DNA of 64,000 nt from Lentisphaeria bacterium (GCA_016302315.1 JAEDNW010000001.1:3332-67331), one strand, 5' to 3'; shown: positions 42,678 to 64,000, numbered from the stretch's first letter. Notes: generated by a model from the letters alone, not told the origin. A program made the numbers and translations.

Positions 42678-42685
42678 GCCCCACC

Positions 42686-46511: not shown

Positions 46512-46653
46512 TCCCCGTCCCCCCCCCCCCGAAGGAGAAGCAAGGCCCCCACAACGCCCACCCTCTCTCCTCCGGCGGGGAGGTCTGATGCGCAGACTAT
46601 CATAAGTGCTTGTATATAAACAAGTTATATACATTCAACACGCCAGCTCCCTC

Positions 46654-48890: not shown

Positions 48891-48945
48891 TCCCCCTTTC
48901 TCTACTCCCTACACACCAACTCTACCCCCATATCCCCCACCTATT

Positions 48946-50238
48946 ATGATGAACTTCATCCCCATGACCGATGCCGAAGTCCAGCAGCGCTATGAACTGG
49001 CGAAGAAATCCTTTGCCGACATGGGCGTGGACACCGAAAAGGCTCTCGAAACCCTGAAGAACACCCCCATCTCCCTCCACTGCTGGCAGGGAGACGATGT
49101 CCACGGCTTCGAAGTCCACGAGGGCGCCGTCAGCGGCGGCGGCATCATGAGCACCGGAAACTACCCCGGCTGCGCCACCTCCCCGGAACAGCTGCGCTGC
49201 GACGCGGAAACCGCCCTGAAGCTGATCCCCGGCAAGAAGCGCTTCAATCTCCACGCCATCTATGCGGAAACCGACGGAAAGGTGGTGGACCGGGACCAGA
49301 TCACCCCCGAACACTTCGCCCGCTGGATGGCCTGGGCCAAGGAACAGGATGTGGCCCTGGACTTCAATCCCTCCTTCTTCGCCCACCCCCTGGCCGACTC
49401 CGGATACACCCTCTCCAACCGGGATGACAAGGTGCGGGACTTCTGGGTGCGCCACGACAAGCAGTGCCGCCTCATCGCCGCCGCAATGGGCAAGGCCCAG
49501 GGCTCTCCCTGCATCGTCAACCACTGGGTGCCTGACGGCGCCAAGGACCAGCCTGTGGACCGCCTCACCCCCAGAAAACTCCTCAAGGACTCCTACGACC
49601 GCATCTTCGCCGAAAAGCTGGATCCCGCCTGCATCCGGGACGGCGTGGAAAGCAAGGTCTTCGGCATCGGCCTGGAAGACTACACCGTGGGCTCCCATGA
49701 GTTCTACATGAACTACGTGGCCTCCCGCCCCCAGAAGGATGTGATGATCACCTTCGACATGGGACACTTCCATCCCACCGAATCGATCCACGACAAGATC
49801 TCCTCCGTGGCTGTCTTCCAGGACGAACTCCTCCTCCACGTCTCCCGACCCATCCGCTGGGACTCCGACCACGTGGTCAACTTTAACGACGACCTCCGCA
49901 ATCTCTTCCTCCAGCTGGTGCGCTGCAACTTCCTCAAGAACACCTATCTGGCCCTGGACTTCTTCGACGGCGCCATCGACCGCCTGGGCGCCTGGGTGGT
50001 GGGCACCCGCGCCGCCCAAAAGGCCCTCCTCTACGCCCTCCTGGAACCCACCCCCATCCTGGACCAGTTCGAGAAGGACAACGACAACGCCATGAAGCTG
50101 GCGCTGCTGGAAGAGCTCAAGGGGGCCCCCTGGGAAGCCGTCTACGACGAGTTCTGCCGCCGTCAGGGCACCCCCGTGGGGAATGCCTGGATCAACCAGC
50201 TCTTCGACTACGACCGCAAAGTGGCCCGCACCCGCTAG
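48946..50238 (+). CDS. rhaA: L-rhamnose isomerase
   Basis: Collinear with E. coli RhaA along its whole length: ELAK..F...G.D.E.AL..L...P.S.HCWQGDDV.GFE, TGNYPG, KR.NLHAIY, GHFHPTE, LLLHVSRP.RWDSDHVV and AAWV.GTR...KALL.ALLEP. Confidence 0.95.
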   Translation: MMNFIPMTDAEVQQRYELAKKSFADMGVDTEKALETLKNTPISLHCWQGDDVHGFEVHEGAVSGGGIMSTGNYPGCATSPEQLRCDAETALKLIPGKKRFNLHAIYAETDGKVVDRDQITPEHFARWMAWAKEQDVALDFNPSFFAHPLADSGYTLSNRDDKVRDFWVRHDKQCRLIAAAMGKAQGSPCIVNHWVPDGAKDQPVDRLTPRKLLKDSYDRIFAEKLDPACIRDGVESKVFGIGLEDYTVGSHEFYMNYVASRPQKDVMITFDMGHFHPTESIHDKISSVAVFQDELLLHVSRPIRWDSDHVVNFNDDLRNLFLQLVRCNFLKNTYLALDFFDGAIDRLGAWVVGTRAAQKALLYALLEPTPILDQFEKDNDNAMKLALLEELKGAPWEAVYDEFCRRQGTPVGNAWINQLFDYDRKVARTR

Positions 50239-50244
50239 CCTCCC

Positions 50245-50823
50245 ATGAAGAGCACACCCGTCCATGAGCCGCACCCCACCCGCCGCTACGCCATCTCGGT
50301 GATGTTCCGGGATCAGGTGGGGATTGTGGCCGATGTCGCCTCGGCCATTCAGAGCCTCCAGGGCAATCTTCTAGATGTCAGCCAGAGCGTCCTGCAGAAC
50401 TACTTCTCCATGATCCTGCTGGCGGATTTCCATCCGGAGATCCAGGAGGAGCAGATTCTCCAGGCCCTGCGTTCCCTGGCCTCCCTCCAGGGTGCCTCCT
50501 TCGGCATCCTGGCCTGCCCCCAGGAACCCGCCGCCGCCGCCGCCGTCTCCCAGGAGGATGACACATACGTCCTCACCGCCTCCGGCCCGGACCGTCCCGG
50601 CATGGTGGCCTCCCTCTCCGCCTACCTCAAGGAGCGGAACATCAACATCGTGGACCTTTCCAGCCGCAACCACGAGGGAATCTACACCATGATCTGGCAG
50701 ATCCAGATTCCCCCTGCCCTGGATGTCCAGAAGCTTCAGAGAAGCATGCAGCTGGCCTTCCAGCCCGATATGGAGATCGGCTTGCGCCACGACGCCCTCT
50801 TCCGGGTGACCAACGAAATCTGA
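50245..50823 (+). CDS. tandem ACT-domain protein (GcvR-like)
   Basis: Two ACT-like units: ISVMFRDQVGIVADVASAIQSLQGNLLDV and VLTASGPDRPGMVASLSAYLKERNINIVDL. Confidence 0.65.
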   Translation: MKSTPVHEPHPTRRYAISVMFRDQVGIVADVASAIQSLQGNLLDVSQSVLQNYFSMILLADFHPEIQEEQILQALRSLASLQGASFGILACPQEPAAAAAVSQEDDTYVLTASGPDRPGMVASLSAYLKERNINIVDLSSRNHEGIYTMIWQIQIPPALDVQKLQRSMQLAFQPDMEIGLRHDALFRVTNEI

Positions 50824-50843
50824 CCTCCCCTTGCCCTACCCCG

Positions 50844-50880
50844 CCCCTTCCCTCCTGCCAGGAAGGGGCCGTTTCTTTTC
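50844..50880 (+). terminator. terminator-like hairpin between the ACT gene and the large glycosidase-like gene
   Basis: CCCCTTCC (50844-50851) pairs with GGAAGGGG (50861-50868), followed by CCGTTTCTTTTC. It ends 5 nt before the next ATG. Confidence 0.4.
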
Positions 50881-50885
50881 TCCCC

Positions 50886-53800
50886 ATGAACGCTTCCTCC
50901 CCTTTCCTCCGCCTTTGGCTCTGCCTCCTCCTGGGAACTTCCCTCCCCCTCCTCAGCCACACCGAAGAAGGCTCCCTCCCCTTCTCCCTGATGTCCACGG
51001 CCAAGAATGACAGCCAGGCCACCCTCCAGGCGGAGGAAGCCAGGCAGCGGGAGCAGGAGGGCTATCGTCTGGAAGGGGCGGCTCTCCGGGACGCCGTCTC
51101 CATCTTCGGGGCCTCCCCCAACGCCGTCTCCCAGGACATTCTCTCCCTGCAGGCCAGGGAATCCGCTTCCGGCTTCTACAACATGCACCAGAACTGGGAC
51201 ACCTCCCGGATCCGCCAGCTGGAATTCACCCTCCGGGCCGACCAGTCCGGATTTCTGCAGTTCTCCGGCAATCTCCTGAAGGACGGCAAGAAAACCCAAT
51301 ACATGGCCACCATCGAATCCCTGATTCCCGATGGGGAATGGCACACCCTGGTGATTCCCACCGAGGACACCGCCTGGGAGGGAACCCTGACCAACTGGGA
51401 ACTGCGCTGGCTGGGAAAGGACGGCGCCCGTCTGGAACTCCAATCCATTGACGCCCTCCCCTACCGCAACGCCTTCCTCAACGCCGCCCGGCGCAGCCCC
51501 GGAAAACCCCTGGTCGCCCCCGTGCTGCGTCCCCGGGCCCAATGCCGCCTCTCCTGGCAGGGAGAAGGCCCCAATCCCGGCATCCGCCTCCACTTCCTGG
51601 ACTACAACCTGAAGGAGATACCGGGCACCTCCCTGGCGCTGCCTCCGGGCACCCAGGAGCCCCTGGAATTCACTACCCCCGAGGGCATGATTCTCACCTA
51701 CGGGGAGCTTCAGGGGGAATCCGACGGCGTCCCCGTCCTGGAGCAGGTGGCCTACTGGACCTATTTTGAATCCCGGGGGAAATGGCGGGGATCCTGGCTG
51801 TGGTTTCAGAAGGAGGAGGGTCCCAACTACTACAACATGTGGCTGGAGCGCACCTTCGACCTTCCCGAGGATCCGGAGTATGCGGTCATCACCTATCTGG
51901 CGGACGATGTGGCCTACCTCTACATCAACGGGCAGTACTGCGGCAAGAACGAGACCTGGCAGGTGCCCCAGCGGGCCGACCTCACCCATGTGCTGAAGAA
52001 GGGGCGGAACGTGATGAAGATCCGGGTCTACAACGGCGAACAGGCCGCAGGCTTTGCCGCCGACGTCTATGTCCGCGCCGGGGGGAAGGACTACACCTTC
52101 GACACCGATGAGTCCTGGCGCTGCGAATCCAAGACGAACCAGCCCCACTCCATTCCCGAAGTGGTGGACGAGCCGGTGGTGGTTCTGGGCAATCCCCACG
52201 TCACCGCCCCCTGGAAGAACGGGGCCGCCTACCGGTACGCCGGCCCCCGGGGCGTCCTGGCCCTGGAGGGAGACCCCGCCCCCGGCAGCTTCTCCGCCAA
52301 GGTGGTGACCCTGCCTCCCGAACCCATCTCCAGCCTCCGGCTCACCTTCACCGACACCCAGGAGAAAAATCCGCCCCGGGAATATCTCCTCCCCCTCACC
52401 CCGGAATCCTCCCAGTGGAACGTGGGGGACACCCTCACCTTCTCCTATCCCCTCCCTCCCCTGGAAGAGGGCACATACCGCATCACCGCCAACGATGACT
52501 ACCTGGGCATCCAGAACGAACGCCCCCTGGGCACCCTGACGGCCCCGCCACGCCCCGCCACTTCCTTCCAGCAGGCCACCTTCCAGCAGGTGGGCACACG
52601 CCCCAGAATCTTCCTGGGAGACCAGGAGGTGTCTCCCTGCTTCTGGCACGCCATCGACATGATCCGGAACCGCCGCTTCCAGGAAATGCCCCTGGCTCCC
52701 CGGGCTGGCATCCAGAACTACCGCCTGGTCCTGGATCTGAAGGAAGCCTGGGTTTCCCCGGAGGAGATTGACTACAGCAAGATGGAGGAGGCGGTGGACG
52801 CCATGCTGGCCGCCTGCCCCGAGGCCGTCTTCGCCCTCCACATCAACATCCAGATGCCCAACTGGTGGCTGGATCAGAATCCCGACCAGGTCTGCACCTT
52901 CGCCGACGGCTCCCGCACCGGCGCCGACCGCTATATGCAGAGCCTGGCCTCCCGGAAGTGGGTGGAGGACGCCTCCCAGGCCATCCGCCAGACCATCCGC
53001 TACCTGGGGGGACGCTCCTACGCCTGCCGCCTCTGGGGCATCTCCATCGCGGAAGGCCACAACGGAGAATGGTTCTGGCCCGTCACGGACAGCCGTCAGA
53101 ACTACTCCTGGGGCGGCTACAACCGATGCGACCAGGAATATTTCCGGGAGCATCTCCGCCGGAAGTACGGGACGGACCAGCAGCTCCAGAAGGCCTGGCA
53201 CAATCCCGCCGTCACCCTGGACGACCTCCCCGAACTCCCCCATTGGAAGACCGCCAGCCAGGCCACCCTGGGAATCCTCCGGGATCCCGCCAAGGAACAG
53301 CCCCTCATGGACTGGCTGGAATCCCGGAACGAAGCCCTGGGAGAGGCCATCTGCGACTTCGCCAGGGCCATCAAGGAGGAATCCCAGGGAAAACTCCTCG
53401 TCGGATTCTACTACGGCTACCTCACAGAGCTGGGATGCAACGGCTATCTCCAGCTGCCTCTGGTGGGCCACAACGGTCTCCACAGAGTCCTCCAGTCCCC
53501 CGATGTGGATTTCCTCGGCGCACCCTCCCGCTATACCTACCGGAAGACCGGGGACGCCGACGGCATCATGCACCCCTGGACCACTCTCTCCCTCCACGGC
53601 ATCGTCACCTACAACGAGATGGACTACCGCACGGCCTACTGCCGGCTTCCCGAGGCCAACACCATGCGGCACTATGTGGCCCAGGCCTCCACCGCCTATG
53701 AGAGCGTGGGGCAGCTCAACCGCTCCTTTGCCATGAATCTGGCCACCGGCATCGCCGGATACTGGTACGACCTCACCGCCGGTGAATTCTACGAGCCCGC

Positions 53801-54704
53801 CCTCCTGGATTTGATGCGGGAGCATTCCCGCATCTGGGAGAGCCTGCCCCCGGTGCAAGGCACCACCCCCTGCCAGGTGGCCATCCTGGGCAACGTGGAC
53901 AGCACCTACTGCACCACGCCCCCGGATGCCCAGGGCGTCTTCACCCACGCCATCGAGGGAATCTTCGGGCTGATGAACCAGCTGGCCATCCCCTTCGACA
54001 GCCTCCTGCTGGAGGATCTGCTGGAACCCGGCCTCCCCACGCCCCCCCGGAAACTCTACATTGTCCTTCCCACCCTGGTGCTCACCCAGGAGCAGCGGGA
54101 GGGCCTCCTGGCCCGCTTCGCCCAGGAGAAGGCCACGGTGGTCTGGCTCTACGCCGCCGGCGCCTCCTATCCCGGCGCCGCCCCCTCCCCGGACAGCAAC
54201 GGGGATTTCCTGGGATTGCGCACCCTCCTGCTGGCAAAGAAGTTCCGCCCCGTGGCCCTCACGGGCCCGGAATTCGGGGAAATCCGCTGCGAGAACCGAG
54301 CCGCCTCCCAACCCTGGTTCGTCCCCGTGGACGGCTACCACCAGGCCGTGGCCGCCGATGACCAGGGAAATCCCTGGGTGGTCCGCAAGGAAATCGACGG
54401 CGCCACCCACTACTACTCCGCCCTGATGAACCTCCCCGCGGAATTCTACCGGGTCCTCCTCCAGGAAACCGGCATCCACCAGTACGCCGACAACCAGGAC
54501 AATGACCAGTTCTGGATCGGCAACGACATCCTCTGCCTCTATGCCAGAAAGGGCGGCACAAAAACCCTCCGCCTTCCCCCCGGCACCACGGCAAAAGCCA
54601 TCCTGGGCCCCTTCACGGGAACCCTCACCCCCGACGACAACTCCTTCCCGGCCCTCCCGGGAATGGCCTACGGATTCCTCCTCCAGGAGGATCCCCGGCA
54701 CTAG
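50886..54704 (+). CDS. large secreted glycoside-hydrolase-like protein (galactose-binding-like modules plus a GH42-like TIM-barrel region)
   Basis: 1272 aa. Signal peptide ...LWLCLLLGTSLPLLSH. A jelly-roll-like segment (YLADDVAYLYINGQYCG...MKIRVYNG) is present. The central region (MPNWWLDQNPDQ..., AEGHNGEWF, YFREHLRRKYGTDQQLQKAWHNP) resembles GH42-type beta-galactosidases. The family assignment is tentative. Confidence 0.45.
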   Translation: MNASSPFLRLWLCLLLGTSLPLLSHTEEGSLPFSLMSTAKNDSQATLQAEEARQREQEGYRLEGAALRDAVSIFGASPNAVSQDILSLQARESASGFYNMHQNWDTSRIRQLEFTLRADQSGFLQFSGNLLKDGKKTQYMATIESLIPDGEWHTLVIPTEDTAWEGTLTNWELRWLGKDGARLELQSIDALPYRNAFLNAARRSPGKPLVAPVLRPRAQCRLSWQGEGPNPGIRLHFLDYNLKEIPGTSLALPPGTQEPLEFTTPEGMILTYGELQGESDGVPVLEQVAYWTYFESRGKWRGSWLWFQKEEGPNYYNMWLERTFDLPEDPEYAVITYLADDVAYLYINGQYCGKNETWQVPQRADLTHVLKKGRNVMKIRVYNGEQAAGFAADVYVRAGGKDYTFDTDESWRCESKTNQPHSIPEVVDEPVVVLGNPHVTAPWKNGAAYRYAGPRGVLALEGDPAPGSFSAKVVTLPPEPISSLRLTFTDTQEKNPPREYLLPLTPESSQWNVGDTLTFSYPLPPLEEGTYRITANDDYLGIQNERPLGTLTAPPRPATSFQQATFQQVGTRPRIFLGDQEVSPCFWHAIDMIRNRRFQEMPLAPRAGIQNYRLVLDLKEAWVSPEEIDYSKMEEAVDAMLAACPEAVFALHINIQMPNWWLDQNPDQVCTFADGSRTGADRYMQSLASRKWVEDASQAIRQTIRYLGGRSYACRLWGISIAEGHNGEWFWPVTDSRQNYSWGGYNRCDQEYFREHLRRKYGTDQQLQKAWHNPAVTLDDLPELPHWKTASQATLGILRDPAKEQPLMDWLESRNEALGEAICDFARAIKEESQGKLLVGFYYGYLTELGCNGYLQLPLVGHNGLHRVLQSPDVDFLGAPSRYTYRKTGDADGIMHPWTTLSLHGIVTYNEMDYRTAYCRLPEANTMRHYVAQASTAYESVGQLNRSFAMNLATGIAGYWYDLTAGEFYEPALLDLMREHSRIWESLPPVQGTTPCQVAILGNVDSTYCTTPPDAQGVFTHAIEGIFGLMNQLAIPFDSLLLEDLLEPGLPTPPRKLYIVLPTLVLTQEQREGLLARFAQEKATVVWLYAAGASYPGAAPSPDSNGDFLGLRTLLLAKKFRPVALTGPEFGEIRCENRAASQPWFVPVDGYHQAVAADDQGNPWVVRKEIDGATHYYSALMNLPAEFYRVLLQETGIHQYADNQDNDQFWIGNDILCLYARKGGTKTLRLPPGTTAKAILGPFTGTLTPDDNSFPALPGMAYGFLLQEDPRH

Positions 54705-54710
54705 CCCTCT

Positions 54711-54775
54711 CCCCTCTCCCCCAAAACGAGAGGGGCCCCGCCCCCCCCGAAAGGAAAAACGGGAGGCCGTTTTTT
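54711..54775 (+). terminator. two hairpins after the glycosidase-like gene, the second followed by a T-run
   Basis: CCCCTCTC (54711-54718) pairs with GAGAGGGG (54728-54735). Then AAAAACGG-GAGG-CCGTTTTT spans 54755-54774. Confidence 0.45.
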
Positions 54776-54789
54776 CCCTCCTCGCCTAC

Positions 54790-54831
54790 GGAAATCCGGG
54801 ATATATTACTCTCTCTGTTTCCCGGATTTCC
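54790..54831 (+). promoter_or_regulatory. perfect 11-bp inverted repeat (candidate operator or 5'-UTR stem) upstream of the SPFH operon
   Basis: GGAAATCCGGG (54790-54800), a 20-nt spacer containing ATATATTACT, then CCCGGATTTCC (54821-54831). It ends 27 nt before the ATG at 54858. Confidence 0.4.
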
Positions 54832-54857
54832 CTTGTATTCGCGTTCTTCTATCCCCC

Positions 54858-56813
54858 ATGAGAAAAGAAATCAGTTATCGTCCCCGGAACCTGGCATTTG
54901 CCGTGGCATGCAGCGGCATCCTTTTTCTGGTGGTGGGTCTCTTCCTGGCGCAGTCCGGCCATGCCAAGGCCATGACGCCCGCCTGCATCTCCGCCGTGGT
55001 GACCGCCTTCATGGGCCTGCTGGCCGCCGGACGGGTGATCTTTGAACGGCGGCAGCGCCAGGAGGAACGGGATGCGGCGGAATATCACCGCCAGCACGGC
55101 TCCACCGAATTGTTCGGGGACGCCGACGAGGCTGTGCGCCTGGCCACCCGGGCCAACCAGCAGTTCACCAAGTATTTCATCCCCGTGGCCACCATCGTCA
55201 TCGGCGTCTCCCTGGGCCTGGTGGTGCTGAACCGCTGGATCTCCCTCCGCTATCTGGATTACCAGTATACCGTCCAGAACCCCCTCTCCCTGGCCATCCT
55301 GGCCTTCTGCTGCTGCATCGCCACCCTGGTGGCCGGCAGCTTCTTCATCGGTGTCTCCCGGGAATCCGGCTGCCGCTGGATCCGCCCCGGCGCCGCCTGG
55401 CTCCTGCTGACGGGATTCCTCTTCCTCCTGGGCAGCTTCATCTACTTCTGCCGCCACTTCCAGCGCTTCCAGGAAAGCATGGACCGCTCCCTCTCCAAGG
55501 CCGGCCTCATCGTTCTGGCCGTGCTGGCGGCGGAGATGGTCCTCTCCTTCGTCATCGAATTCTACCGTCCCCGGATGCCCAACGAGGAGGAGCGCCCTCT
55601 GCCGGAAAGCCGCCTTCTCTCCCTCTTCACCGAGCCGGGAAGCATGGCCCGCAATGTGGCCAATTCCCTGGACTACCAGTTCGGATTCCGGGTCTCCGAC
55701 GCCTGGTTCTACCACTTCCTGGAACGCACCATCGTCCCCCTCTTCATGATCATGGTCCTGGCCTTCTGGCTGATGACCTGCATCGTGGTGGTGGACTCCT
55801 CCGAAACCGCCCTCCGGGAACGCTTCGGCAGAGTCATCGACGCCGAACCCGTGGGCCCCGGCGTCTACTTCAAGTTCCCCTACCCCTTCGAGCATTTCTA
55901 CCGCTTCTCCTCCGACAAGGTCCAGGAACTCACCATCGGCGGCCATGACGAGGAGGAAGAACCCCATGCCCCCGCTCCCAAGGACGACGGCCACGGCCAT
56001 GGCCACGGCCAGGAGGAGGAGCGGAATGACGCCGTCATTCTCTGGAATGTCAAGGAAGACCATGCCGACGAAGGCCACTTCCTGGTGGGCGCCAAGAACG
56101 TGGAGCGCCTGGAACTCTCCATCCAGGCCACCGGCCAGCAGATGGGACAGCAGGGCGTGGGCCTCTTCAGCGCCCATATCCCCCTCTTCTTCCGGGTGAA
56201 GGATCTCTACGACTACGCCTACAAGAACCGGAATGCGTCGGATATCCTGAAGAATCTGGCCCAGCGCGAACTGCTCCAGTACTTCATCCAGTGCGACTGG
56301 GCCGATCTTCTGGGCCCCGGACGGGGCGAGGCCATGGTGGTGCTGAAGGACAGGATCCAGGCCGCCGCCGATGAGCTGGAACTGGGAGTAGAGGTGGTCT
56401 TTGTGGCCCTCACGGGCATCCATCCCCCCTTCGGCGTGGGAGAATCCTTCGACCGCATCACCAGCGCCACCGTGGACCGGAAAAAGATGGTCCAGGACGC
56501 CCGCACCGTGGCCAACAGCAACCTGATCATCTCCCAGTCCATCCAGCGCCAGATCCTCAACGAGGCCAGCGCCTACAAGGAAACCCAGGTGGTCTCCGCC
56601 CGGGCCGACGCCCAGCGCTATGCAGGACAGCTCCTCTGCTACCGCGCCGCCCCACGCCAGTATATGCTCAACAGCTACTATGATGTCTTCCTCTCCGAGG
56701 GAGACGCCGTCCGAAAGTTTGTCATCACGGGCAACGCCGCCGACCAGGTCCTCTGGCTGAATCTGGACCGCAAGGTGAAAAACGGCCTCCTGGATCTGAA
56801 CCTCTCCGAATAG
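54858..56813 (+). CDS. polytopic membrane protein fused to an SPFH/band-7 domain
   Basis: 651 aa with about 7 N-terminal TM helices. The SPFH core follows (ETALRERFGRVID...GPGVYFKFPYPFE...), interrupted by an acidic His-Gly-rich insert. The tail is HflK/C-like (SARADAQRYAGQL). Confidence 0.65.
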   Translation: MRKEISYRPRNLAFAVACSGILFLVVGLFLAQSGHAKAMTPACISAVVTAFMGLLAAGRVIFERRQRQEERDAAEYHRQHGSTELFGDADEAVRLATRANQQFTKYFIPVATIVIGVSLGLVVLNRWISLRYLDYQYTVQNPLSLAILAFCCCIATLVAGSFFIGVSRESGCRWIRPGAAWLLLTGFLFLLGSFIYFCRHFQRFQESMDRSLSKAGLIVLAVLAAEMVLSFVIEFYRPRMPNEEERPLPESRLLSLFTEPGSMARNVANSLDYQFGFRVSDAWFYHFLERTIVPLFMIMVLAFWLMTCIVVVDSSETALRERFGRVIDAEPVGPGVYFKFPYPFEHFYRFSSDKVQELTIGGHDEEEEPHAPAPKDDGHGHGHGQEEERNDAVILWNVKEDHADEGHFLVGAKNVERLELSIQATGQQMGQQGVGLFSAHIPLFFRVKDLYDYAYKNRNASDILKNLAQRELLQYFIQCDWADLLGPGRGEAMVVLKDRIQAAADELELGVEVVFVALTGIHPPFGVGESFDRITSATVDRKKMVQDARTVANSNLIISQSIQRQILNEASAYKETQVVSARADAQRYAGQLLCYRAAPRQYMLNSYYDVFLSEGDAVRKFVITGNAADQVLWLNLDRKVKNGLLDLNLSE

Positions 56814-56874
56814 GCCGCCCCACGCCCGCCCACCCCCTTCTCATTCACGCCCACCCCTCTCCCCTGATACGACA

Positions 56875-57810
56875 ATGAAAGACGACACGCAGAAGAAGAC
56901 GATGACGAAACACTGGCCAGTGGTGCTCCTGGCCCTGCTGGTGGTAGCCATCTTCCTGGTGGTTATGGTCACCTTCCAGGTGAAGGAAACCGAATACGCC
57001 CTCCTGAAGACCTACTCCGGAGAACTGGTGGAATACGGAAGCGGACTCCATTTCCGCTGGCCCTTCGTCAACTCCATCTGGCGCCACGACAAGCGCATCC
57101 AGTGCTATGAACTGGCCGTGGGCCATGACGAACAGTACATGACCAGCGACAACCAGCAGATCGTCATCTCCACCTACGTCCTCTGGAAGGTGGGTGACCC
57201 CAAGACCTTCCTCCGCTCCCTGGATTCCACCGAGGCCGCCGAGCGGAAGCTCTCCGACGAGGTCCGGGGCGCCCGCTCCGCCGTCATCTCCCGCTACGCA
57301 TTCTCCGACATGGTCAGCGAAAAGGACGGCACCAGCCTCCTCTCCCGCATTGAGGACGAGATGCGCCTGGCCATCCACGACAGCGTGCTGAAGCAGTTCG
57401 GCATTGACATCGTCCGCATCGGCTTCCGCCAGCTGGGCTTCCCCGCCGCCGTCACCCAGAACATCTTCGCCGCCATGGTCTCCGAGCGGGAGGCCAAGGC
57501 CAAGCGCTTCGAGGTGGAGGGTCAGGCGGAGGCGGAGCGCATCCGCAGCGACGCCAACACCGAAGCCCAGAAGATGCTGGCCAAGGCCCAGGCCGAGGCC
57601 ACCAAAATCCGCGGCGAAGGCGATGCCCAGGCCGCCGAGGCCTACCGGGTCTTCTCCCAGAACCCCGAATTGGCCAGCTTCCTGCGGAATCTGGATGCCC
57701 TGAAGGGAGCCCTGGGCGAAAAGGACACCCTTATCCTGGACACCACCACCGCACCCTTCAACCTGCTGACCCCCCAGGCCCTGGATACCCTCCAGAACAA
57801 TCAGCAGTAG
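56875..57810 (+). CDS. HflC-like SPFH-domain protein
   Basis: 311 aa with one N-terminal TM helix. It has GLHFRWPFVNSI and the coiled-coil signature REAKAKRFEVEGQAEAERIR..A..EAQK..A.A.AEA.KIRGEGDA.AA..Y. Confidence 0.75.
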   Translation: MKDDTQKKTMTKHWPVVLLALLVVAIFLVVMVTFQVKETEYALLKTYSGELVEYGSGLHFRWPFVNSIWRHDKRIQCYELAVGHDEQYMTSDNQQIVISTYVLWKVGDPKTFLRSLDSTEAAERKLSDEVRGARSAVISRYAFSDMVSEKDGTSLLSRIEDEMRLAIHDSVLKQFGIDIVRIGFRQLGFPAAVTQNIFAAMVSEREAKAKRFEVEGQAEAERIRSDANTEAQKMLAKAQAEATKIRGEGDAQAAEAYRVFSQNPELASFLRNLDALKGALGEKDTLILDTTTAPFNLLTPQALDTLQNNQQ

Positions 57811-57832
57811 CCCGGCGGGAGGAAACATCACC

Positions 57833-59086
57833 ATGGAATCCCACCCCCAGACCCCTCTCCCCGAGACCCCACAGGCCACGGGAATGGCAAGCCTGACCAG
57901 GATGCTCCGCATCCTCTTCTTCTGCTTCCTGACCCTCATCGCCGGCGTCTTCATCTACTACTTCATCTTCAGCGGAATCTTTCGGGTGGAGGAACAGTAC
58001 GAAGCCATGCAGCTGCGCTTCGGTGTCCTCCAGAAGCACACCACCGACACCGGCGATTCCCCCATCCTCCAAAGCGGGAAATGGTACTGGTCCTATCCCT
58101 ATCCGGTGGACGAAGTGATCCTGGTGCCCGCCAACAAATCCATCTCCGTCTCCACGGAAAACACCTTCAAGGCCTGGGTCAACCCCAGCGGCAACATGAC
58201 CGGGGCCAGCGGCAGAGAGCTGCGCAACGGAGTGGACGGATATCTGGTCTCCGGAGACATGCACATCTTCCATGCGGAATGGGTGGTCTCCTACCGGGTG
58301 GAGGATCCTGCCAGCTACTACCTGAACTTCTACGACGACACCAATACCACCGCCGCCTTCTATCTGCCCTCCTCCGAACAGGTCAAGACCCAGGACAGAC
58401 TCCGGGGACATGAGCTGATGATCCGGAATATGCTGGCGGATGCCGTGCTCTCCGAAACCGCCAACTGGACCACGGAGGACCTGATCCGCACCAGCCGCCT
58501 GATTCCCGACGACAAGGGCGGAGAGGTCACCGTGCGCCTGGAGGACCGGATCCGGGGCCGTCTGGCCAAGATTGTGGAGGAGGTGGGTCTGGGCATCCAA
58601 CTGCAGACGGTGACCCTGGTGGGCATCTACCAGCCCCCCGCCGCCGCCCTCCAGGCCTTCAACCAGGTCAATGCCAGCGAGCGCAACCGCCAGACCCTGG
58701 TGCAGAACGCCACGACCTACGCCAACCAGGTGGTGGCCCAGGCCAACGCCGCCTGCGACCGCCTGATCAACGAGGCCAAGGCCTACCAGGAAACCGTGGT
58801 GGGCGAACTCCAGGCCCAGGCCCAGTATTTCTCCTCCATCCAGGCGGAGTACGCCAAAAATCCCCGCTCCACCATCACTGTCCTGTATGCCAATGCCATC
58901 CGGGATATGCTCCGGGGTGTGCCCAATAAGTACATCCTCCACCAGACCCCAGAAGGCACCACGCAGCAGCTCCGCCTCCAGATCTCCCAGATCCCCGAAG
59001 AACGGCAGCAGGCCACCACCACGGGACAGGAGGCCTCCTACGCCCCCGCCTCCGCCCAGCCTACGGGAGACGCTCCCAGGGAATAA
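57833..59086 (+). CDS. HflK-like SPFH-domain protein
   Basis: 417 aa with one TM helix (LRILFFCFLTLIAGVFIYYFIF). An SPFH core is followed by AF..V.ASE......V..A..YAN.VV..A... Confidence 0.7.
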   Translation: MESHPQTPLPETPQATGMASLTRMLRILFFCFLTLIAGVFIYYFIFSGIFRVEEQYEAMQLRFGVLQKHTTDTGDSPILQSGKWYWSYPYPVDEVILVPANKSISVSTENTFKAWVNPSGNMTGASGRELRNGVDGYLVSGDMHIFHAEWVVSYRVEDPASYYLNFYDDTNTTAAFYLPSSEQVKTQDRLRGHELMIRNMLADAVLSETANWTTEDLIRTSRLIPDDKGGEVTVRLEDRIRGRLAKIVEEVGLGIQLQTVTLVGIYQPPAAALQAFNQVNASERNRQTLVQNATTYANQVVAQANAACDRLINEAKAYQETVVGELQAQAQYFSSIQAEYAKNPRSTITVLYANAIRDMLRGVPNKYILHQTPEGTTQQLRLQISQIPEERQQATTTGQEASYAPASAQPTGDAPRE

Positions 59087-59125
59087 CGCCCACGCCCACG
59101 CCTTTCCACAGCCGCCATCCCCAGG

Positions 59126-61135
59126 ATGACGACGGATGACCTCCCCAACTTCCTTCCGGTTCCCATGGCAGATCCTACCCCCTCCACCCCAAAAGCCCAC
59201 TCCCCCACCACCGCCGTCACCCGGGTCACCCGATCCGACATGGGACGGCTGGGCGCTGCCCTCTTCGGCGGAATCCTTGTCCTGGACTCCTATCTGGCGG
59301 GACTCCTCTTCGCCAATAGCATCGACCAGTTCACCATGGATCTCTTCGCCCTGGTGGGCGCCATCATCCTCTCCATCCCCATCTACTGGGAGGCGGGACG
59401 CGACCTCTTCCGGGGAGTGGTGGGCATGAACGAGCTGGTGGCCCTGGCCCTTCTGGGCGCCTTCGCCTCCGGCCCCAGCAACTACCGCACCGCCGGCGCC
59501 GTGGCCTTCTTCATGCTGATCTCCATCACCATCGAGAAGCGCACCGCCATCGGCGCGGAGGCCGCCATTGAGGCCGTGGTCCGCATGACCCCCAGAACCG
59601 CCCGACGCATCCGGAAGGACGGCTCCGAGGAACAGTGCGACGCCATCCACGACCTGAATGTGGGCGATACCTGCCGTGTCCGCCCCGGCGAAAACTTCCC
59701 GGCGGACGGCAAGATCATCCAGGGTGTCTCCACGGTGAACCAGGCCTCCATCACCGGCGAAAGTCTCCCCACCGACAAGGGAGTGGGCGATGAAGTCTAC
59801 GCCGGAACCCTGAATCTCACCGGTCTGGTGGATTTCCAGGTGACCCGGAAGGGCACCGACACCACCCTGGGCAAGGTCCGGAACCTCATCGCGGACGCCG
59901 AGCAGTCCAAGATGCCCATCCAGCGGATGATTGACCAATACATCGGCTACTACACTCCCGTGGTGCTGATGATTGCCGGCCTCACCTGGTTTGTCACCAA
60001 TGACATGAGCCGGGTCATCGCCGTGCTGGTCATGGCGGTGCCCGCCGCCCTGGTGCTGGCCCACCCCTCCGCGGTCATCGCCGCCATCTCCGCAGCCTCC
60101 CGCCTGGGCATCCTCATCAAGGATGTCTCCCAGATCGAACTGGTGGCCAAGATCAAGGCGGTCATCTTCGATAAGACCGGTACCCTCACCGAGGGAAATC
60201 TGGAAGTCTCCCGGCTGGAACCCGTCAGCGACGGCGACCTGGCCCAGCTGGTTCAGGTGGCCGTCTCCGTGGAACACCACTCCAACCACCCCACCGCCGT
60301 GGCCATTAAGAAGCTGGCCGCCAAAGTGGGCATCGATGTGGTGATTCCCGAAAAATACGAGGAAATCCCCGGCAAGGGGGTCTCCGCCATCGTGGACGGC
60401 AAGTCCTGCCTGGTGGGACGCGCCACCTGGCTGGCCGAACAGGGTGTGGATGTCTCCTCCCTGGAAGAAAGCCGCCAGCGGGTGGAAAAGGAAGGCATGT
60501 CCATCGTCACCGTGGCCTGTGACGGAAAGCCCCTGGGCTGGATCGGACTCCAGGATGCCATCCGCTCCGTCACGGAGGAGGCAGTGGCCAACCTGAAGGA
60601 AATGGGCGTGGAGCACTGCTGCATGGTCACCGGTGACAATCAGCAGGTGGCCGATGTGGTGGCCCGGAAGGTGGGCATCACCGAAGTCTACGCCGGATGC
60701 CTCCCCGAGGAAAAGGCCAAGGTGGTCTCCCAGCTGAAGCAGGCGGGCAACATCGTGGCCGTGGTGGGTGACGGTGTCAACGATGCCCCGGCTCTGGCCG
60801 CCGGCGACATCGGTATGGCCATGGGCGCCTTCGGCAGCGACATCGCCGTCCAGTCCGCCTCTGTGGCCCTGATGAACAACGATCTGCGCCGCATCCCCTT
60901 CTTCATCGGACTGGCCCGGCAGACCCGGATGCTCATGAACCAGAATCTGGCGGTGGGGCTCACCTTCATCACCGTGGGCGTCTACTTCGCCATCGCCGGC
61001 GATCTGGGCCCCATCGGGGCGGCCTTGATCCACACCGTCTCCAGCCTCCTGGTCATCTTCAACAGCGCGCGTCTCGTGCGCTCCGGCGAAAGCCTGGAGG
61101 CCACCCCCGCCCAGGAGAAGGAGTCCCGCGCCTAA
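59126..61135 (+). CDS. P1B-like P-type ATPase lacking an N-terminal metal-binding domain and the CPx motif
   Basis: TGES (ITGESLP), DKTGT (60170-60184), an HP-type N-domain motif (SNHPTAVAI), GDGVNDAPALA and VTGDN are all present. At the position of the TM CPC motif the sequence is AVPAALVLAHP (V-P-A at 60038-60046). Confidence 0.8.
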   Translation: MTTDDLPNFLPVPMADPTPSTPKAHSPTTAVTRVTRSDMGRLGAALFGGILVLDSYLAGLLFANSIDQFTMDLFALVGAIILSIPIYWEAGRDLFRGVVGMNELVALALLGAFASGPSNYRTAGAVAFFMLISITIEKRTAIGAEAAIEAVVRMTPRTARRIRKDGSEEQCDAIHDLNVGDTCRVRPGENFPADGKIIQGVSTVNQASITGESLPTDKGVGDEVYAGTLNLTGLVDFQVTRKGTDTTLGKVRNLIADAEQSKMPIQRMIDQYIGYYTPVVLMIAGLTWFVTNDMSRVIAVLVMAVPAALVLAHPSAVIAAISAASRLGILIKDVSQIELVAKIKAVIFDKTGTLTEGNLEVSRLEPVSDGDLAQLVQVAVSVEHHSNHPTAVAIKKLAAKVGIDVVIPEKYEEIPGKGVSAIVDGKSCLVGRATWLAEQGVDVSSLEESRQRVEKEGMSIVTVACDGKPLGWIGLQDAIRSVTEEAVANLKEMGVEHCCMVTGDNQQVADVVARKVGITEVYAGCLPEEKAKVVSQLKQAGNIVAVVGDGVNDAPALAAGDIGMAMGAFGSDIAVQSASVALMNNDLRRIPFFIGLARQTRMLMNQNLAVGLTFITVGVYFAIAGDLGPIGAALIHTVSSLLVIFNSARLVRSGESLEATPAQEKESRA

Positions 61136-61186
61136 TCCCCTTTCCCTACCCGAGAACATCCCCCGCAAGAGAACCCATTTCCCACT

Positions 61187-62401
61187 ATGGCAGACGTGAA
61201 TCATAAGGAAGAACTGGTGGTGGAGGCCGTCGGCCTGACCAAAATCTTCAAGGATTTCTGGAATCGCCCCAAGGCCCGGGCCGTCAATGGCCTGGATCTC
61301 CAGATCCGAAAAGGCGAGGTCTTTGGCCTCCTGGGGCCCAACGGCTCCGGAAAATCCACCACCATCAAAATGATTCTGGGACTCCTCTACCCCACCCGGG
61401 GAGAACTGAAGGTCTTCGGACAGGATCCCCAGAATGTCTCCATGAAGAGCCGCATCGGCTATCTGCCCGAGGAAACCTACCTCTATAAGTACCTCACCGC
61501 CTTCGAAACCCTGGACTTCTACGGCGCCCTCTTCGGCCTGGAAGCCGACCAGCGCCGGGAACGAGCCAGCCAGCTCCTGGAAATGGTGGGCCTGGCCCAC
61601 GCCGTGGACCGCCCCGTGGGCGAATTCTCCAAGGGTATGGCCCGGCGCATCGGTCTGGCCCAGGCTCTGGTCAATGACCCCGACCTGGTGATCCTGGACG
61701 AGCCCACCAGCGGACTGGATCCCATCGGATGCCGGGAGGTGAAGGATGTGATCCGCCTGCTGGCCAGCCGCGGCAAAACCGTGATCCTCTGCAGCCACCT
61801 CCTGGCCGACGTCCAGGATGTGTGCCAGCGGGTGGTGGTGCTCTACGGCGGACAGATCCGCGCCCAGGGGCTTCTGGAGGATATCCTGCGCCAGGAAGAC
61901 AAGACCCAGATCATCACCCCCAGGCTCTCCCAGGAGACCCTCAAGGAACTCCAGGCCTTCCTGAAGGCCCACGGCGTGGAGGATCCCTCCCGCATCCAGG
62001 TGGACAATCCCGGACTGGATCTGGAAAGCTACTTCCTGGATGTGGTCCGCAAGGCGACGGAGCAGAAACTCTCCACCGCCGGTGCCCACGCTCCCGGCGC
62101 CATGCCCGAATATCTCCGCAAGGACGCCCCCGAAGCCACCGGACAGGAGATCCTCCGGGCTCTCCAGGGACGGGAGGAAGAGGAGAAGCGTCGGGCGGAG
62201 GCTGCCCAGGCCGAGGCCCAGCTCCGGGCCGCCACCCAGGCCAAGGAAGCGCAGAAGCGCCAGAAGCTGGAGGAATTGACCGCCCAGGAGCAGCCCAGCG
62301 AAGACGAAAAGGCCCAGGCCGAAGCCCAGGCCAAGGCCGAAGCCGACGCCCAGGCCCGGGAAGAGCTCAACAAGAAACTCGCCGGACTCAAGCTGAAGTA
62401 G
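61187..62401 (+). CDS. ABC-2-type ATP-binding protein with a charged coiled-coil C-terminal tail and no adjacent permease
   Basis: Walker A is GPNGSGKST, the signature is FSKGMARR, and Walker B is LVILDEPTSGLD. The last 100 aa or so are E/A/Q/K-rich (EEEKRRAEAAQAEAQLRAATQAKEAQKRQKLEEL...AEAQAKAEADAQAREELNKKL). Confidence 0.8.
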   Translation: MADVNHKEELVVEAVGLTKIFKDFWNRPKARAVNGLDLQIRKGEVFGLLGPNGSGKSTTIKMILGLLYPTRGELKVFGQDPQNVSMKSRIGYLPEETYLYKYLTAFETLDFYGALFGLEADQRRERASQLLEMVGLAHAVDRPVGEFSKGMARRIGLAQALVNDPDLVILDEPTSGLDPIGCREVKDVIRLLASRGKTVILCSHLLADVQDVCQRVVVLYGGQIRAQGLLEDILRQEDKTQIITPRLSQETLKELQAFLKAHGVEDPSRIQVDNPGLDLESYFLDVVRKATEQKLSTAGAHAPGAMPEYLRKDAPEATGQEILRALQGREEEEKRRAEAAQAEAQLRAATQAKEAQKRQKLEELTAQEQPSEDEKAQAEAQAKAEADAQAREELNKKLAGLKLK

Positions 62402-62470
62402 GGTTCCTCGGCGCCTCGCCCGCCACGTCACGTTACGTCACGCCAGGCGCCTTCCCTCCCTCCTCCTCCC

Positions 62471-63136
62471 ATGGGCATGAAGAACGACGAGCGCCTCCAG
62501 GCATTGCTGGAGGCTTCCCAGGCCAGGGAAAGAGGGGAGCGGACCTCGGCCAGGACCGGCCCCTGGGAGGTGCGGGAGGTTTCCCGAAAGTCTGCCCTGC
62601 CTTCTGTGGTGGACGCCTCCGGGGTTCAGGGCAAAGTGCGGGTCTTGGGCATGGACACCGCCCTGCGAAAGACGGGCTGGGGCATCGTGGACGTGGTGGG
62701 GAAGAAATGGATTGCGGTGGACTGCGGGGTGATCATCAATCCCCCCTCCGCCTCCATCACGGACTGCATGCGCCATCTCAACAACGCCATCAAGGGACTG
62801 ATTGAGCGCTACTCTCCCGATGCGGCCGCCATTGAAGGCGGCTTTTATTGCAAGAACGCCCGCACCGCCATCCTGCTGGGCACCTCCCGGGGGGCGGTGC
62901 TGGGAGTGTTGGCGGAGGCTCAGCTGCCGGTATACGAATACGCTCCCCGCCGGGTGAAGCAGGTGGTGGCGGGGCGAGGGGATTCCACCAAAGAGCAGGT
63001 GGCCCTCATGGTCTCCCGCCTGCTTCGCATCCGGGTGGAGAATCTGGCCAACGACTCCACCGATGCCCTGGCTCTGGCCATCTGCCATGCGGCCGCCCTG
63101 ATGAATCCCGCTGTGGAACTGGAAAAGCCTCTCTGA
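62471..63136 (+). CDS. ruvC: crossover junction endodeoxyribonuclease RuvC
   Basis: The core VLGMDTALRKTGWGIV...AAIEGGF..KNA..A..LG..RG....A.A...LPVYEYAPR.VKQ.V.G.G...KEQV..MV..LL........DSTDALALAICHA is collinear with E. coli RuvC. The ATG at 62471 adds a 55-aa extension; a GTG at 62636 would give a canonical protein of about 166 aa. Confidence 0.85.
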   Translation: MGMKNDERLQALLEASQARERGERTSARTGPWEVREVSRKSALPSVVDASGVQGKVRVLGMDTALRKTGWGIVDVVGKKWIAVDCGVIINPPSASITDCMRHLNNAIKGLIERYSPDAAAIEGGFYCKNARTAILLGTSRGAVLGVLAEAQLPVYEYAPRRVKQVVAGRGDSTKEQVALMVSRLLRIRVENLANDSTDALALAICHAAALMNPAVELEKPL

Positions 63137-63168
63137 CCCTCCCACACTCTCCCCCCTCCCCTTCTCCC

Positions 63169-64000
63169 ATGGCTGACCTCTCCGTGAATCTCGGGGGCAT
63201 CCCCCTGCGCAATCCCATCATCACCGCCTCGGGCACCTTCGGCTACGGGGAGGAATACGCCTCCCTGGTGCCCGCGGAAAAGCAGGGCGCCATCACAGTC
63301 AAGGGAGTCTCTCCCTTCGAGAATCCCGGCAATCCCATGCCCCGCACCACCGAGGTCTTCGGGGGAATCCTCAATGCCATCGGACTGGAAAACCCCGGCA
63401 TCGAAAAGTTCATCCATGCCCCCCAGTATCTTCCCCGCCTCCGCACGCTCCCCTGCCCCGTCATCGTCAACATCTGGGGACGCACCGTGGAGCAATACGG
63501 AGAGGTGGCGGCCCGTCTGGAAGAGGAAAAGGAGGGAATTGCCGCCCTGGAAATCAATATTTCCTGCCCCAATGTGAAGGCGGGAGGCATCGCCTTCGGC
63601 ACAGATCCCCGGGAGGCCGCCAAGGTGGTCGCCGCCGTCCGGGCCGCCACCACCCTCCCCCTCATCACCAAACTCTCCCCCAATGTGACCCATATCGCCG
63701 ATTTCGCCAAAGCCGTGGTGGATGCCGGCTCCCATATGCTCTCCTTGATCAATACGCTCACCGGACTCTCCATCGACCTGGAAACCCGACGCAGCCGACT
63801 GGCCAATTTCACCGGCGGATTCTCCGGCCCCGCCCTCAAGCCTGTCGCCCTGCTCAAGGTCTATGAAGCCCACCAGGCCGTCCCCCAAGTGCCTATTATC
63901 GGCATGGGAGGAGTCTTCAACGGCAAAGACGCCCTGGAATTCATGATGGCCGGCGCTACCGCCGTGGGCGTGGGAACCGCCATCTTCGTCACCCCCCAAT
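63169..64000 (+). CDS. pyrD: dihydroorotate dehydrogenase, class 1 catalytic subunit; C-terminal end runs off the window
   Basis: My translation from the ATG at 63169 gives MADLSVNLGGIPLRNPIITASGTFGYGEEY...NAIGLENPG...LEINISCPNVK.GG..FG...ITKLSPNV...INT...GG.SGPALKP.AL...IIGMGGV....DALEFMMAGATAVGVGTA. Confidence 0.88.
   Translation, partial: MADLSVNLGGIPLRNPIITASGTFGYGEEYASLVPAEKQGAITVKGVSPFENPGNPMPRTTEVFGGILNAIGLENPGIEKFIHAPQYLPRLRTLPCPVIVNIWGRTVEQYGEVAARLEEEKEGIAALEINISCPNVKAGGIAFGTDPREAAKVVAAVRAATTLPLITKLSPNVTHIADFAKAVVDAGSHMLSLINTLTGLSIDLETRRSRLANFTGGFSGPALKPVALLKVYEAHQAVPQVPIIGMGGVFNGKDALEFMMAGATAVGVGTAIFVTPQ

Follow-up and report, generated by a model that had tools for sequence, protein, structure and literature searches.

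We analysed a stretch of 64,000 nucleotides from a Lentisphaeria bacterium (GCA_016302315.1, JAEDNW010000001.1:3332-67331; "the window" below), in which five genes of one strand, here called A to E, are found between positions 54,790 and 62,401. A, B and C encode three paralogous SPFH-domain proteins, D a P-type ATPase and E an ABC ATPase. By sequence comparison, A-B-C-D is the form that a widespread module of four genes takes in Lentisphaerota, a group of gut and environmental bacteria; the hmtA locus of Pseudomonas aeruginosa is the sole example of this module to have been studied. We describe the gene content of this module, its conservation, its homology to the hmtA locus, the pattern in which metal-binding motifs have been lost and the purifying selection acting on its genes, and we propose that an HflK/HflC-like cage probably works with the HmtA-family pump in the handling of transition metals.

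Conservation of the four-gene module and its relation to the hmtA locus

The five open reading frames (ORFs) are all on the plus strand, with intergenic gaps of 61, 22, 39 and 51 nt (Table 1). Domains were assigned with Pfam and NCBIfam models. Protein A contains a Band_7 domain (residues 311-550 in Pfam), preceded by a long hydrophobic N-terminal part, and scores 81 bits on the NCBIfam HflK model (cutoff 159). Band_7 is also found in B, which passes the HflC model TIGR01932 (152 bits vs a cutoff of 134), and in C, which reaches 98 bits on the HflK model (cutoff 159). D matches E1-E2_ATPase and Hydrolase in Pfam and the heavy-metal P1B model TIGR01525 (531 bits vs a cutoff of 346), while E matches ABC_tran at E 2e-34, its drrA and GldA model scores being under cutoff. 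A preliminary description of this DNA had reported the same layout and gap sizes, which the ORF coordinates confirm, and most of its assignments hold as well: A is a fusion of seven membrane helices, as predicted by AlphaFold, with an SPFH domain; B is HflC-like and C HflK-like, the former above and the latter under the cutoff of its model; D belongs to the P1B lineage, with no Pfam HMA domain and with Val-Pro-Ala (VPA) in place of Cys-Pro-Cys (CPC) in membrane helix M4; and E has no permease partner, the next gene being one for RuvC. No permease gene adjoins E in any of the 53 related loci that have it, either. All five genes are under purifying selection, with ratios of nonsynonymous to synonymous substitution rates (dN/dS) of 0.06-0.22 against the three closest relatives.

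Eighty-four related loci were collected and the five window proteins were mapped onto each of them. Sixty-eight had flanks long enough to be informative for the order of A, B, C and D, and in 67 of these the four genes lie on one strand in the same order as in the window. The loci span Lentisphaerota, Kiritimatiellota and Verrucomicrobiota (Limisphaerales), that is, three phyla of the Planctomycetes-Verrucomicrobia-Chlamydiae (PVC) bacteria, and the closest homologues of A are from Oligosphaeraceae and Lentisphaeria metagenome-assembled genomes (MAGs). The window itself belongs to a Lentisphaerota bacterium of the Oligosphaeraceae. Identity to the window proteins goes down to 29% for A and is 48-72% for D, the best-conserved member. 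A pattern scan of 185,579 GTDB species genomes gave at least 578 matching stretches. The preliminary description had left the conservation of the gene order to be checked; as the order recurs in PVC bacteria of three phyla and, as described below, in Rhizobium and Pseudomonas, chance adjacency of the SPFH triad and the pump is excluded, and the suggestion that the two act together is strongly supported. The ABC ATPase, which had been counted as part of the operon, turned out to lie outside the universal core. It is specific to PVC bacteria, where E comes directly after D in 53 of the 67 loci and is missing there in 14, unrelated genes then following D.

We reached the proteobacterial form of the module through a tblastn search of A against plasmids, which matched Rhizobium replicons; most of the plasmid matches were canonical hflK genes (e.g. 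in Tistrella and Persicobacter). The A-B-C-D core is present in Rhizobium tumorigenes and Rhizobium sp. T1473 (L085/L086), and the Rhizobium A-like protein has homologues about 50% identical to it throughout Pseudomonas. In a P. aeruginosa genome (GCA_053318255.1, L087) the corresponding series of genes encodes proteins of 716, 335 and 346 aa (all with Band_7), a protein of 144 aa and a P-type ATPase of 661 aa, and matches PA2439-PA2438-PA2437-(PA2436)-PA2435. The module of P. syringae (L088) encodes proteins of 648, 344, 342 and 641 aa. The module genes overlap in the proteobacterial versions. In the PA2439-like ORF of L087 (2177-4327) a segment of 49 aa is duplicated exactly and in tandem (LEVLGAAVEAIHPPAGAANAYHAVQAAQITAQALIARERGQAAAQRNEAQ twice), which accounts for its 716 aa as against about 655 aa in other pseudomonads.

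Each window protein matched its positional counterpart best: A the PA2439-like protein (E 2e-21), B the PA2438-like protein (E 3e-24), C the PA2437-like protein (E 6e-9, and E 3e-14 for the P. syringae counterpart) and D the HmtA-like ATPase (40% identity, E 1e-118, 393 bits by phmmer). When the PVC and the Pseudomonas/Rhizobium families of A were compared with hhalign, the probability was 99.7% (E 2e-25) over columns 124-642, which cover the last four membrane helices, the linker and the SPFH domain. The 393 bits of D with HmtA compare with 330 for CopA, 296 for sCoaT and 267 for ZntA, these other comparators being solved structures only; the best solved-structure match scored 330 bits for D and 264 bits for HmtA. 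By these scores D is closer to HmtA than to the other characterised P1B ATPases compared.

The window and the hmtA locus thus have in common a long HflK-like protein with a multi-helix N-terminal domain, two further SPFH proteins and a P1B ATPase, in the same order, and a pump that shows the M6 pattern AA.LH..S.L and has no HMA domain. They differ in several respects. The SPFH proteins are just 21-27% identical, and the pumps 40%. In Pseudomonas there is the small PA2436 gene and no ABC ATPase, whereas the window has the ABC ATPase. HmtA contains CPC and a His-rich N-terminus, and PA2438 also has a His-rich N-terminus (as do the Rhizobium counterparts of both proteins), whereas the window has VPA, no His tracts in B and D, and a DDGHGH loop in A. 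Zur regulation is known for Pseudomonas only.

PA2435, PA2437, PA2438 and PA2439 were induced 5-14 fold in a P. aeruginosa znuA mutant (Pederick et al. 2015, Table 2, PMC4542158), where PA2437 is labelled "HflC family", PA2438 "HflC" and PA2439 "HflK family", and where PA2435 is HmtA, a P1B ATPase reported to import Zn and Cu (PMC4542158). The products of the same four genes were more abundant in zinc depletion (proteomics preprint, PMC11761036), and Zur binds and shifts the PA2439 promoter (Ducret et al., PMC8531726). Overexpression of HmtA raises cellular Zn and Cu (review, PMC10393844), and HmtA has been used as a copper-import control (PMC11923076). A 2026 study, which never mentions the ATPase, named PA2437-2439 PaFlo5-7 and described the operon as patchily distributed (PMC13086221); a survey of prokaryotic SPFH operons from 2009 mentions no ATPase or ABC partner (PMC2636767). 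The claim in the preliminary description that no described system combines an SPFH triad with a P-type pump has therefore to be withdrawn, the hmtA locus (PA2434-PA2439) having already been listed as one P1B ATPase and three proteins of the HflK/HflC family, co-induced when zinc is depleted (PMC4542158, PMC11761036). The module is on record solely as a co-regulated gene list in one species, and we found no paper in the literature searched that treats the triad and the pump as one conserved unit. New here are the deep PVC branch, the extra ABC ATPase and a cysteine-less pump, together with losses and gains of metal-binding features that are correlated.

Metal ligands of the pump

D retains the motifs DKTGT, TGES, TGDN and GDGVNDAP and the "HP" dipeptide of P1B ATPases. 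No HMA domain was found in it with Pfam, and its first 45 residues contain one His. Its M4 helix reads AVPAAL opposite the CPC of Legionella CopA, an alignment by which the CPx motif is truly absent. Among 68 PVC pumps in which the M4 motif was counted, CPC was found in 45, representing most PVC loci, and VPA in 16, namely those of the window and its clade; the others had CPG (four pumps: L055, L071, L073, L074), CPL (one, L042), CPS (one, L067) or CPT (one, L084). The non-CPC types occupied five separate positions among the CPC pumps in a neighbour-joining tree of the simple distance type. The second M4 cysteine, or both, went missing independently in at least five lineages of PVC bacteria (VPA, CPG, CPL, CPS, CPT).

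The loss was accompanied by other changes. The number of N-terminal His residues was 0-2 in every non-CPC pump and 4-17 in most CPC pumps, these counts being approximate because gene starts in the related loci were assigned automatically. A clear His-rich N-terminal tract was found in 17 of the 68 PVC pumps, all of the CPC type. The M6 histidine was replaced by Tyr or Gln in the CPG, CPL, CPS and CPT pumps, and one CPC pump (L063) also has Gln at this position. Most VPA-clade loci, all CPG and CPL loci and some CPC loci have the DDGHGH loop in A; the CPS and CPT loci had only a short A loop with a few extra His. One clade displayed a graded series, consisting of loci with the loop, CPC and a His tract, loci with the loop and CPC and no tract, and loci with the loop and CPG and neither the tract nor the M6 histidine.

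These losses could mean that in this family, and especially in the cysteine-less lineages, the P-type ATPase does not pump transition metals. It might reshape or gate the SPFH cage as an ATP-driven partner, a little like KdpB in its service to KdpA, or it might pump a hard cation or protons; any metal binding there may be would then reside on the SPFH subunit. The at least five lineages that lost M4 cysteines all lack the His tract, and four of the five also lack the M6 histidine; no compensating polar membrane residue was found in cysteine-less pumps, including those of the VPA clade; the DDGHGH loop of A goes with most of the losses; and D has nonetheless kept its catalytic motifs, its place in the operon and, within the VPA clade, a dN/dS of 0.07-0.13. 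However, CPC together with the M6 histidine is kept in the 45 PVC pumps (L063 excepted as to the histidine) and in three of three proteobacterial pumps examined, and many of these have His-rich N-termini, so that the ancestral function looks like ordinary metal transport. Furthermore, we know of no P1B ATPase that acts as a pure motor. We consider this explanation unlikely. A broader form of it, in which the module would be a cross-phylum membrane machine so far unrecognised and the ATPase, joined in PVC bacteria by an orphan ABC ATPase docked on the 7TM domain of A, would power or gate a metal-binding SPFH cage rather than carry out simple metal transport, appears distinctly unlikely; if true, it would give SPFH cages and P-type ATPases alike a mode of action not described before.

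Coupling of the cage to a metal pump, which we favour, would have to take the same losses into account. Because the window clade lacks the M4 cysteines and the His-rich N-terminus, its pump may move a different, non-thiophilic cation, or may mainly serve the cage as an ATP-driven partner.

Proteins A and E and the proposed cage

The AlphaFold model of the whole protein A (predicted local distance difference test, pLDDT, 81) contains seven membrane helices, the SPFH domain and a long C-terminal helix; the N-terminal domain modelled alone had a predicted TM-score (pTM) of 0.78 and a mean pLDDT of 79.5. A fold search of the PDB with A gave HflK/C cages as top matches (7vhq, 9cz2; E ~1e-10), followed by stomatin and prohibitin. 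Searched alone in the same way, the membrane domain had no significant match, and no ABC-2, MacB-type or type VII permease fold was found in it. The best match was to the CDF/ZnT family (E 0.03, TM 0.40), members of which crowd the top of the list, all with E 0.03 or worse and TM of at most 0.46. We rejected homology to CDF/ZnT transporters; helices 2 and 5 lack, by eye, the Asp/His residues of CDF metal sites, and we regard the likeness as that of a generic helix bundle. An exhaustive profile search with the N-terminal domain gave 893 cluster representatives; most of the matches listed were 630-700 aa long, indicating that the domain is normally fused to SPFH.

From the charge distribution and the model, A would have its N-terminus in the cytoplasm and its SPFH domain in the periplasm, as in HflK/HflC, and B and C would share a single-helix layout with the N-terminus inside. 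The near-invariant linker of A (EFYRPRMP.EEERPLPESRLL.LFTEPG..ARNVA.SLDYQFGF.VS, a motif at residues 233-280) is predicted to lie on the cytoplasmic side and could be where a cytoplasmic partner docks. Two further near-invariant segments of A, DADEAVRLATRAN and SRExGCRW(L/I)RP, are also predicted to be cytoplasmic. The loop within the SPFH domain consists of poly-Glu, DDGHGH and poly-Lys, and residues 367-395 have a pLDDT <50 (disordered).

E has the Walker A and B, signature and H-loop motifs of a nucleotide-binding domain (GPNGSGKST, FSKGM, ILDEPTSGLD and SHLL), conserved across 52 orthologues, and is, to judge from them, catalytically complete and highly conserved. Its C-terminal tail is conserved in length and not in sequence, the orthologues being mostly 384-429 aa long. 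E does not occur in the Rhizobium and Pseudomonas modules and was therefore added in PVC bacteria. A sixth conserved gene comes after E in nine loci, which represent seven distinct gene sets and do not include the window; its product is a TPR protein that crosses the membrane once and has a weak TPR_21/YfgM-like match and a Pro/Ala/Glu-rich tail.

Like HflK/HflC, A, B and C would most likely come together in a hetero-oligomeric cage that sits on the inner membrane on its periplasmic side and in which HflC-like subunits (B) would alternate with HflK-like ones (A and C). This cage would be produced together with D, would enclose, flank or organise it through physical coupling and in this way would control the stability of the pump, its lipid and protein surroundings, or the access or supply of metal. 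The invariant cytoplasmic face of A may touch the cytoplasmic domains of the pump, of E, or of both. At the inner membrane the cage and pump would serve the handling of transition metals, most likely those of zinc/copper type, as indicated by the His-rich tracts and by the data on zinc starvation in Pseudomonas; the nature of the metal and the direction of transport are part of what we infer. In PVC bacteria the cytoplasmic ABC ATPase E and, in some lineages, the membrane-anchored TPR protein have been added to the module.

Several known systems resemble it in part. The HflK/HflC-FtsH complex of E. coli, to which the best structural matches belong, has the SPFH domain, the N-terminal anchor, the long C-terminal helix and the predicted periplasmic location, and B passes the HflC model; the window differs from it in having three paralogues instead of two, one of them with a seven-helix membrane domain, and in being linked to a P-type ATPase instead of the FtsH protease. 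In the PacL-Ctp effluxosomes of Mycobacterium tuberculosis, small membrane scaffolds are co-transcribed with P1B ATPases, are required for the stability and clustering of the pumps and can bear a His-rich metal-binding motif; however, PacL is a single-pass DUF1490 protein with cytoplasmic Glu/Ala repeats and no sequence relationship to SPFH, and the pumps are exporters with metal-binding domains (PMC13460109). SPFH-NfeD pairs (QmcA-YbbJ, FloA-NfeD) likewise combine in one operon an SPFH cage protein and a dedicated membrane partner, but no NfeD gene is present at the window locus. In KdpFABC, a P-type ATPase close to the P1B class works as one subunit within a membrane complex of several proteins, all from the same operon; there it is joined by a channel-like subunit and small proteins and by no SPFH protein, and the resemblance is conceptual only.

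SPFH cages (HflK/C, prohibitin, stomatin, flotillin) are universal and, to our knowledge, FtsH is their sole well-defined bacterial client. The linkage of the triad to the pump across phyla offers a second, specific client to test. It also bears on HmtA, an odd "importer", and on its three unexplained neighbours, P. aeruginosa being a tractable pathogen whose acquisition of zinc is of importance in infection. The repeated loss of ligands, mostly in the presence of a His-rich scaffold loop, is a natural experiment on which parts of a P1B ATPase are dispensable in such a complex. Finally, the linkage calls for a correction of annotation; the at least 578 PVC-type stretches and many Pseudomonas and Rhizobium homologues are named only "protease modulator HflK" or "heavy metal translocating ATPase", names that conceal the link between the SPFH and the pump genes.

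A number of observations weigh against the coupling of a cage to a metal pump. Physical interaction between SPFH proteins and the pump has been shown in no organism. HmtA alone, when overexpressed in E. coli, raises cellular metal (PMC11923076), and the pump is therefore not strictly dependent on the SPFH proteins. A triple deletion of paFlo5-7 had marginal phenotypes only, metal limitation not being among the conditions (PMC13086221). In one study hmtA mRNA did not respond to zinc addition (PMC8531726), and according to a review the importer direction of HmtA still awaits confirmation (PMC10393844). It is also unsafe simply to transfer a role in Zn or Cu handling to the window pump, since this has neither CPC nor a His tract. 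The idea that the DDGHGH loop simply replaces the lost tract does not fit, because the loop would be periplasmic, by the topology proposed above, and the tract was cytoplasmic. Lastly, the sole exception to the conserved gene order, a contig of 6.6 kb (L011), carries A-B-C followed by a repeat array and unrelated DNA, with no D; it represents either an assembly chimera or a true loss of the pump.

A different role for the triad is suggested by its resemblance to HflK/C. Like canonical HflK/HflC, A, B and C could be modulators of FtsH, lying beside the pump because they govern its FtsH-dependent turnover, or that of membrane proteins starved of metal, rather than forming a dedicated complex with it. 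In favour of this, B scores above the cutoff of the HflC equivalog model, the structures matched best are complexes of HflK/C with FtsH, and FtsH is a zinc protease, a link raised by the authors of the Pseudomonas proteomics study (PMC11761036). We hold this to be quite improbable, since Pseudomonas has a separate canonical hflK-hflC operon besides the triad (PMC13086221), A and C stay under the HflK cutoff, and the tight linkage across phyla is to the pump and not to ftsH; moreover, a canonical hflKC locus (L090, Tistrella) looks different, with two genes and no ATPase. Pfam scanning of window ORFs (20 of the ~30 other predicted genes) gave no FtsH gene. The absence of FtsH, pointed out in the preliminary description, stands to this extent, but it carries no weight as an argument, because in E. 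coli, too, ftsH lies apart from hflKC. It is very improbable that E docks on the invariant cytoplasmic loops of A to form with it a MacB/FtsEX-like mechanotransducer that would drive movement of the periplasmic SPFH domain with ATP: although E is highly conserved, catalytically intact and without a permease at its loci, and although the near-invariant cytoplasmic segments of A have no assigned role, the membrane domain of A has no ABC-2 or type VII permease fold, the same invariant motifs of A occur in loci that lack E after D, the proteobacterial modules have no E, and E may have a permease encoded at another place in the genome.

Upstream region, coordinates and neighbouring genes

The coordinates of the operon and of the elements preceding it are given in Table 1.

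Table 1. Features of the SPFH-pump locus; positions are those of the window unless a locus is named
Feature	Position	Strand	Description
Weak hairpin	54755-54774	+	Stem AAAAACGG / CCGTTTTT, 4-nt loop; after the upstream 1272-aa gene
Inverted repeat	54790-54831	no strand	GGAAATCCGGGA N18 TCCCGGATTTCC; perfect 12-nt arms (54790-54801 and 54820-54831)
Gene A	54858-56813	+	651 aa; 7-helix membrane domain and HflK-like SPFH; PA2439 homologue
A, N-terminal membrane domain	54858-55793	+	Residues 1-312; six-helix bundle and seventh helix leading into SPFH
A, linker	55554-55727	+	Residues 233-290; near-invariant (alignments of 14 and 80 sequences)
A, acidic/His loop	55944-56027	+	Residues 363-390, HDEEEEPHAPAPKDDGHGHGHGQEEERN, inside the SPFH domain; holds DDGHGH
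Gene B	56875-57810	+	311 aa; HflC-like SPFH, one N-terminal membrane helix; PA2438 counterpart
Gene C	57833-59086	+	417 aa; HflK-like SPFH, one N-terminal membrane helix; PA2437 counterpart
Gene D	59126-61135	+	669 aa; HmtA-family P1B-type ATPase; no HMA domain, no His-rich N-terminus
D, M4 motif Val-Pro-Ala	60038-60046	+	Residues 305-307; replaces Cys-Pro-Cys
Gene E	61187-62401	+	404 aa; single-domain ABC ATPase, DrrA/GldA-like, signature FSKGM
E, C-terminal tail	62084-62398	+	Residues ~300-404; low-complexity, E/K/A/Q-rich, ~100 aa
Sixth gene (TPR protein)	L001 17548-18387; L003 17571-18356; seven other loci		

The inverted repeat noted in the preliminary description is present and perfect, with arms of 12 rather than 11 nt. 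The "terminator" said to precede it is merely a weak A/T-rich hairpin, and a scan for terminators on the plus strand did not call it, because its T-run belongs to the stem. A -10-like TATATT (54802-54807) opens the spacer of the inverted repeat, and many Lentisphaerota loci have a TATAnT element at 50-90 nt before gene A. Outside the window the repeat survives, in part, just in the closest relatives (L005 and L008); its arms there show a few changes, which would be G-U compatible on the sense strand. Most simply, it is a candidate operator overlapping a promoter. As between an operator and an RNA hairpin, the position of the left arm, upstream of the -10-like box, speaks for the former. The repeat does not resemble the AT-rich Zur-type box, and the Pfam scan of window ORFs (20 of the ~30 other predicted genes) gave no gene for Zur. 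A known riboswitch or leader was rejected, as an Rfam scan of 54400-63300 at E up to 1 gave no match.

No palindrome was common to the upstream regions of distant loci, which suggests lineage-specific regulators. Differing perfect palindromes precede gene A in L028 (~90 nt upstream), L062, L001 and L026. In a Kiritimatiellota MAG the palindrome upstream of A is AACATATTAA-CAG-TTAATATGTT, and in strain zth2 it is GGATATTGC-CTTA-GCAATATCC.

We also considered whether the operon is a known defence system and rejected this, since PADLOC gave only generic ABC-ATPase similarities, for E. An ORF of 1557 aa antisense to C, D and E (57758-62431, minus strand) is an artefact, with low third-position GC and no homologues; similar ORFs, which are artefacts of the high G+C, face other window genes. 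The RuvC ORF downstream of E (62471-63136, plus strand) has an N-terminal extension of ~57 aa that lies outside the family, the Pfam match beginning at residue 58. Translation probably begins close to 62630 instead, in which case gene E would be followed by ~230 nt of non-coding DNA.

On contig L011, a REP-like 32-bp tandem repeat (4511-4603, 2.9 copies) comes after gene C, and the DNA beyond it has a lower GC content and encodes an unrelated 204-aa membrane protein. Two loci labelled "Blautia faecis" (L010) and "Candidatus Marinamargulisbacteria" (L027) carry a Lentisphaerota-type operon and are probably mis-binned contigs; L027 is nearly identical to the Victivallales locus L029.

Upstream of the operon, the window encodes a PAS histidine kinase and a sigma-54 activator (41478-44122, plus strand) and then a sugar-use block (44808-54704, plus strand), which terminates directly before the SPFH operon. 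This block consists of an FGGY kinase, two unassigned proteins, L-rhamnose isomerase, an ACT-domain protein and a 1272-aa glycoside-hydrolase-like protein. Farther away, on the minus strand, are genes for proteins of 1143 aa (15004-18435) and 1511 aa (19765-24300), whose sole Pfam match is the bacterial Ig-like domain Big_9, and an outer-membrane beta-barrel protein is encoded between them.

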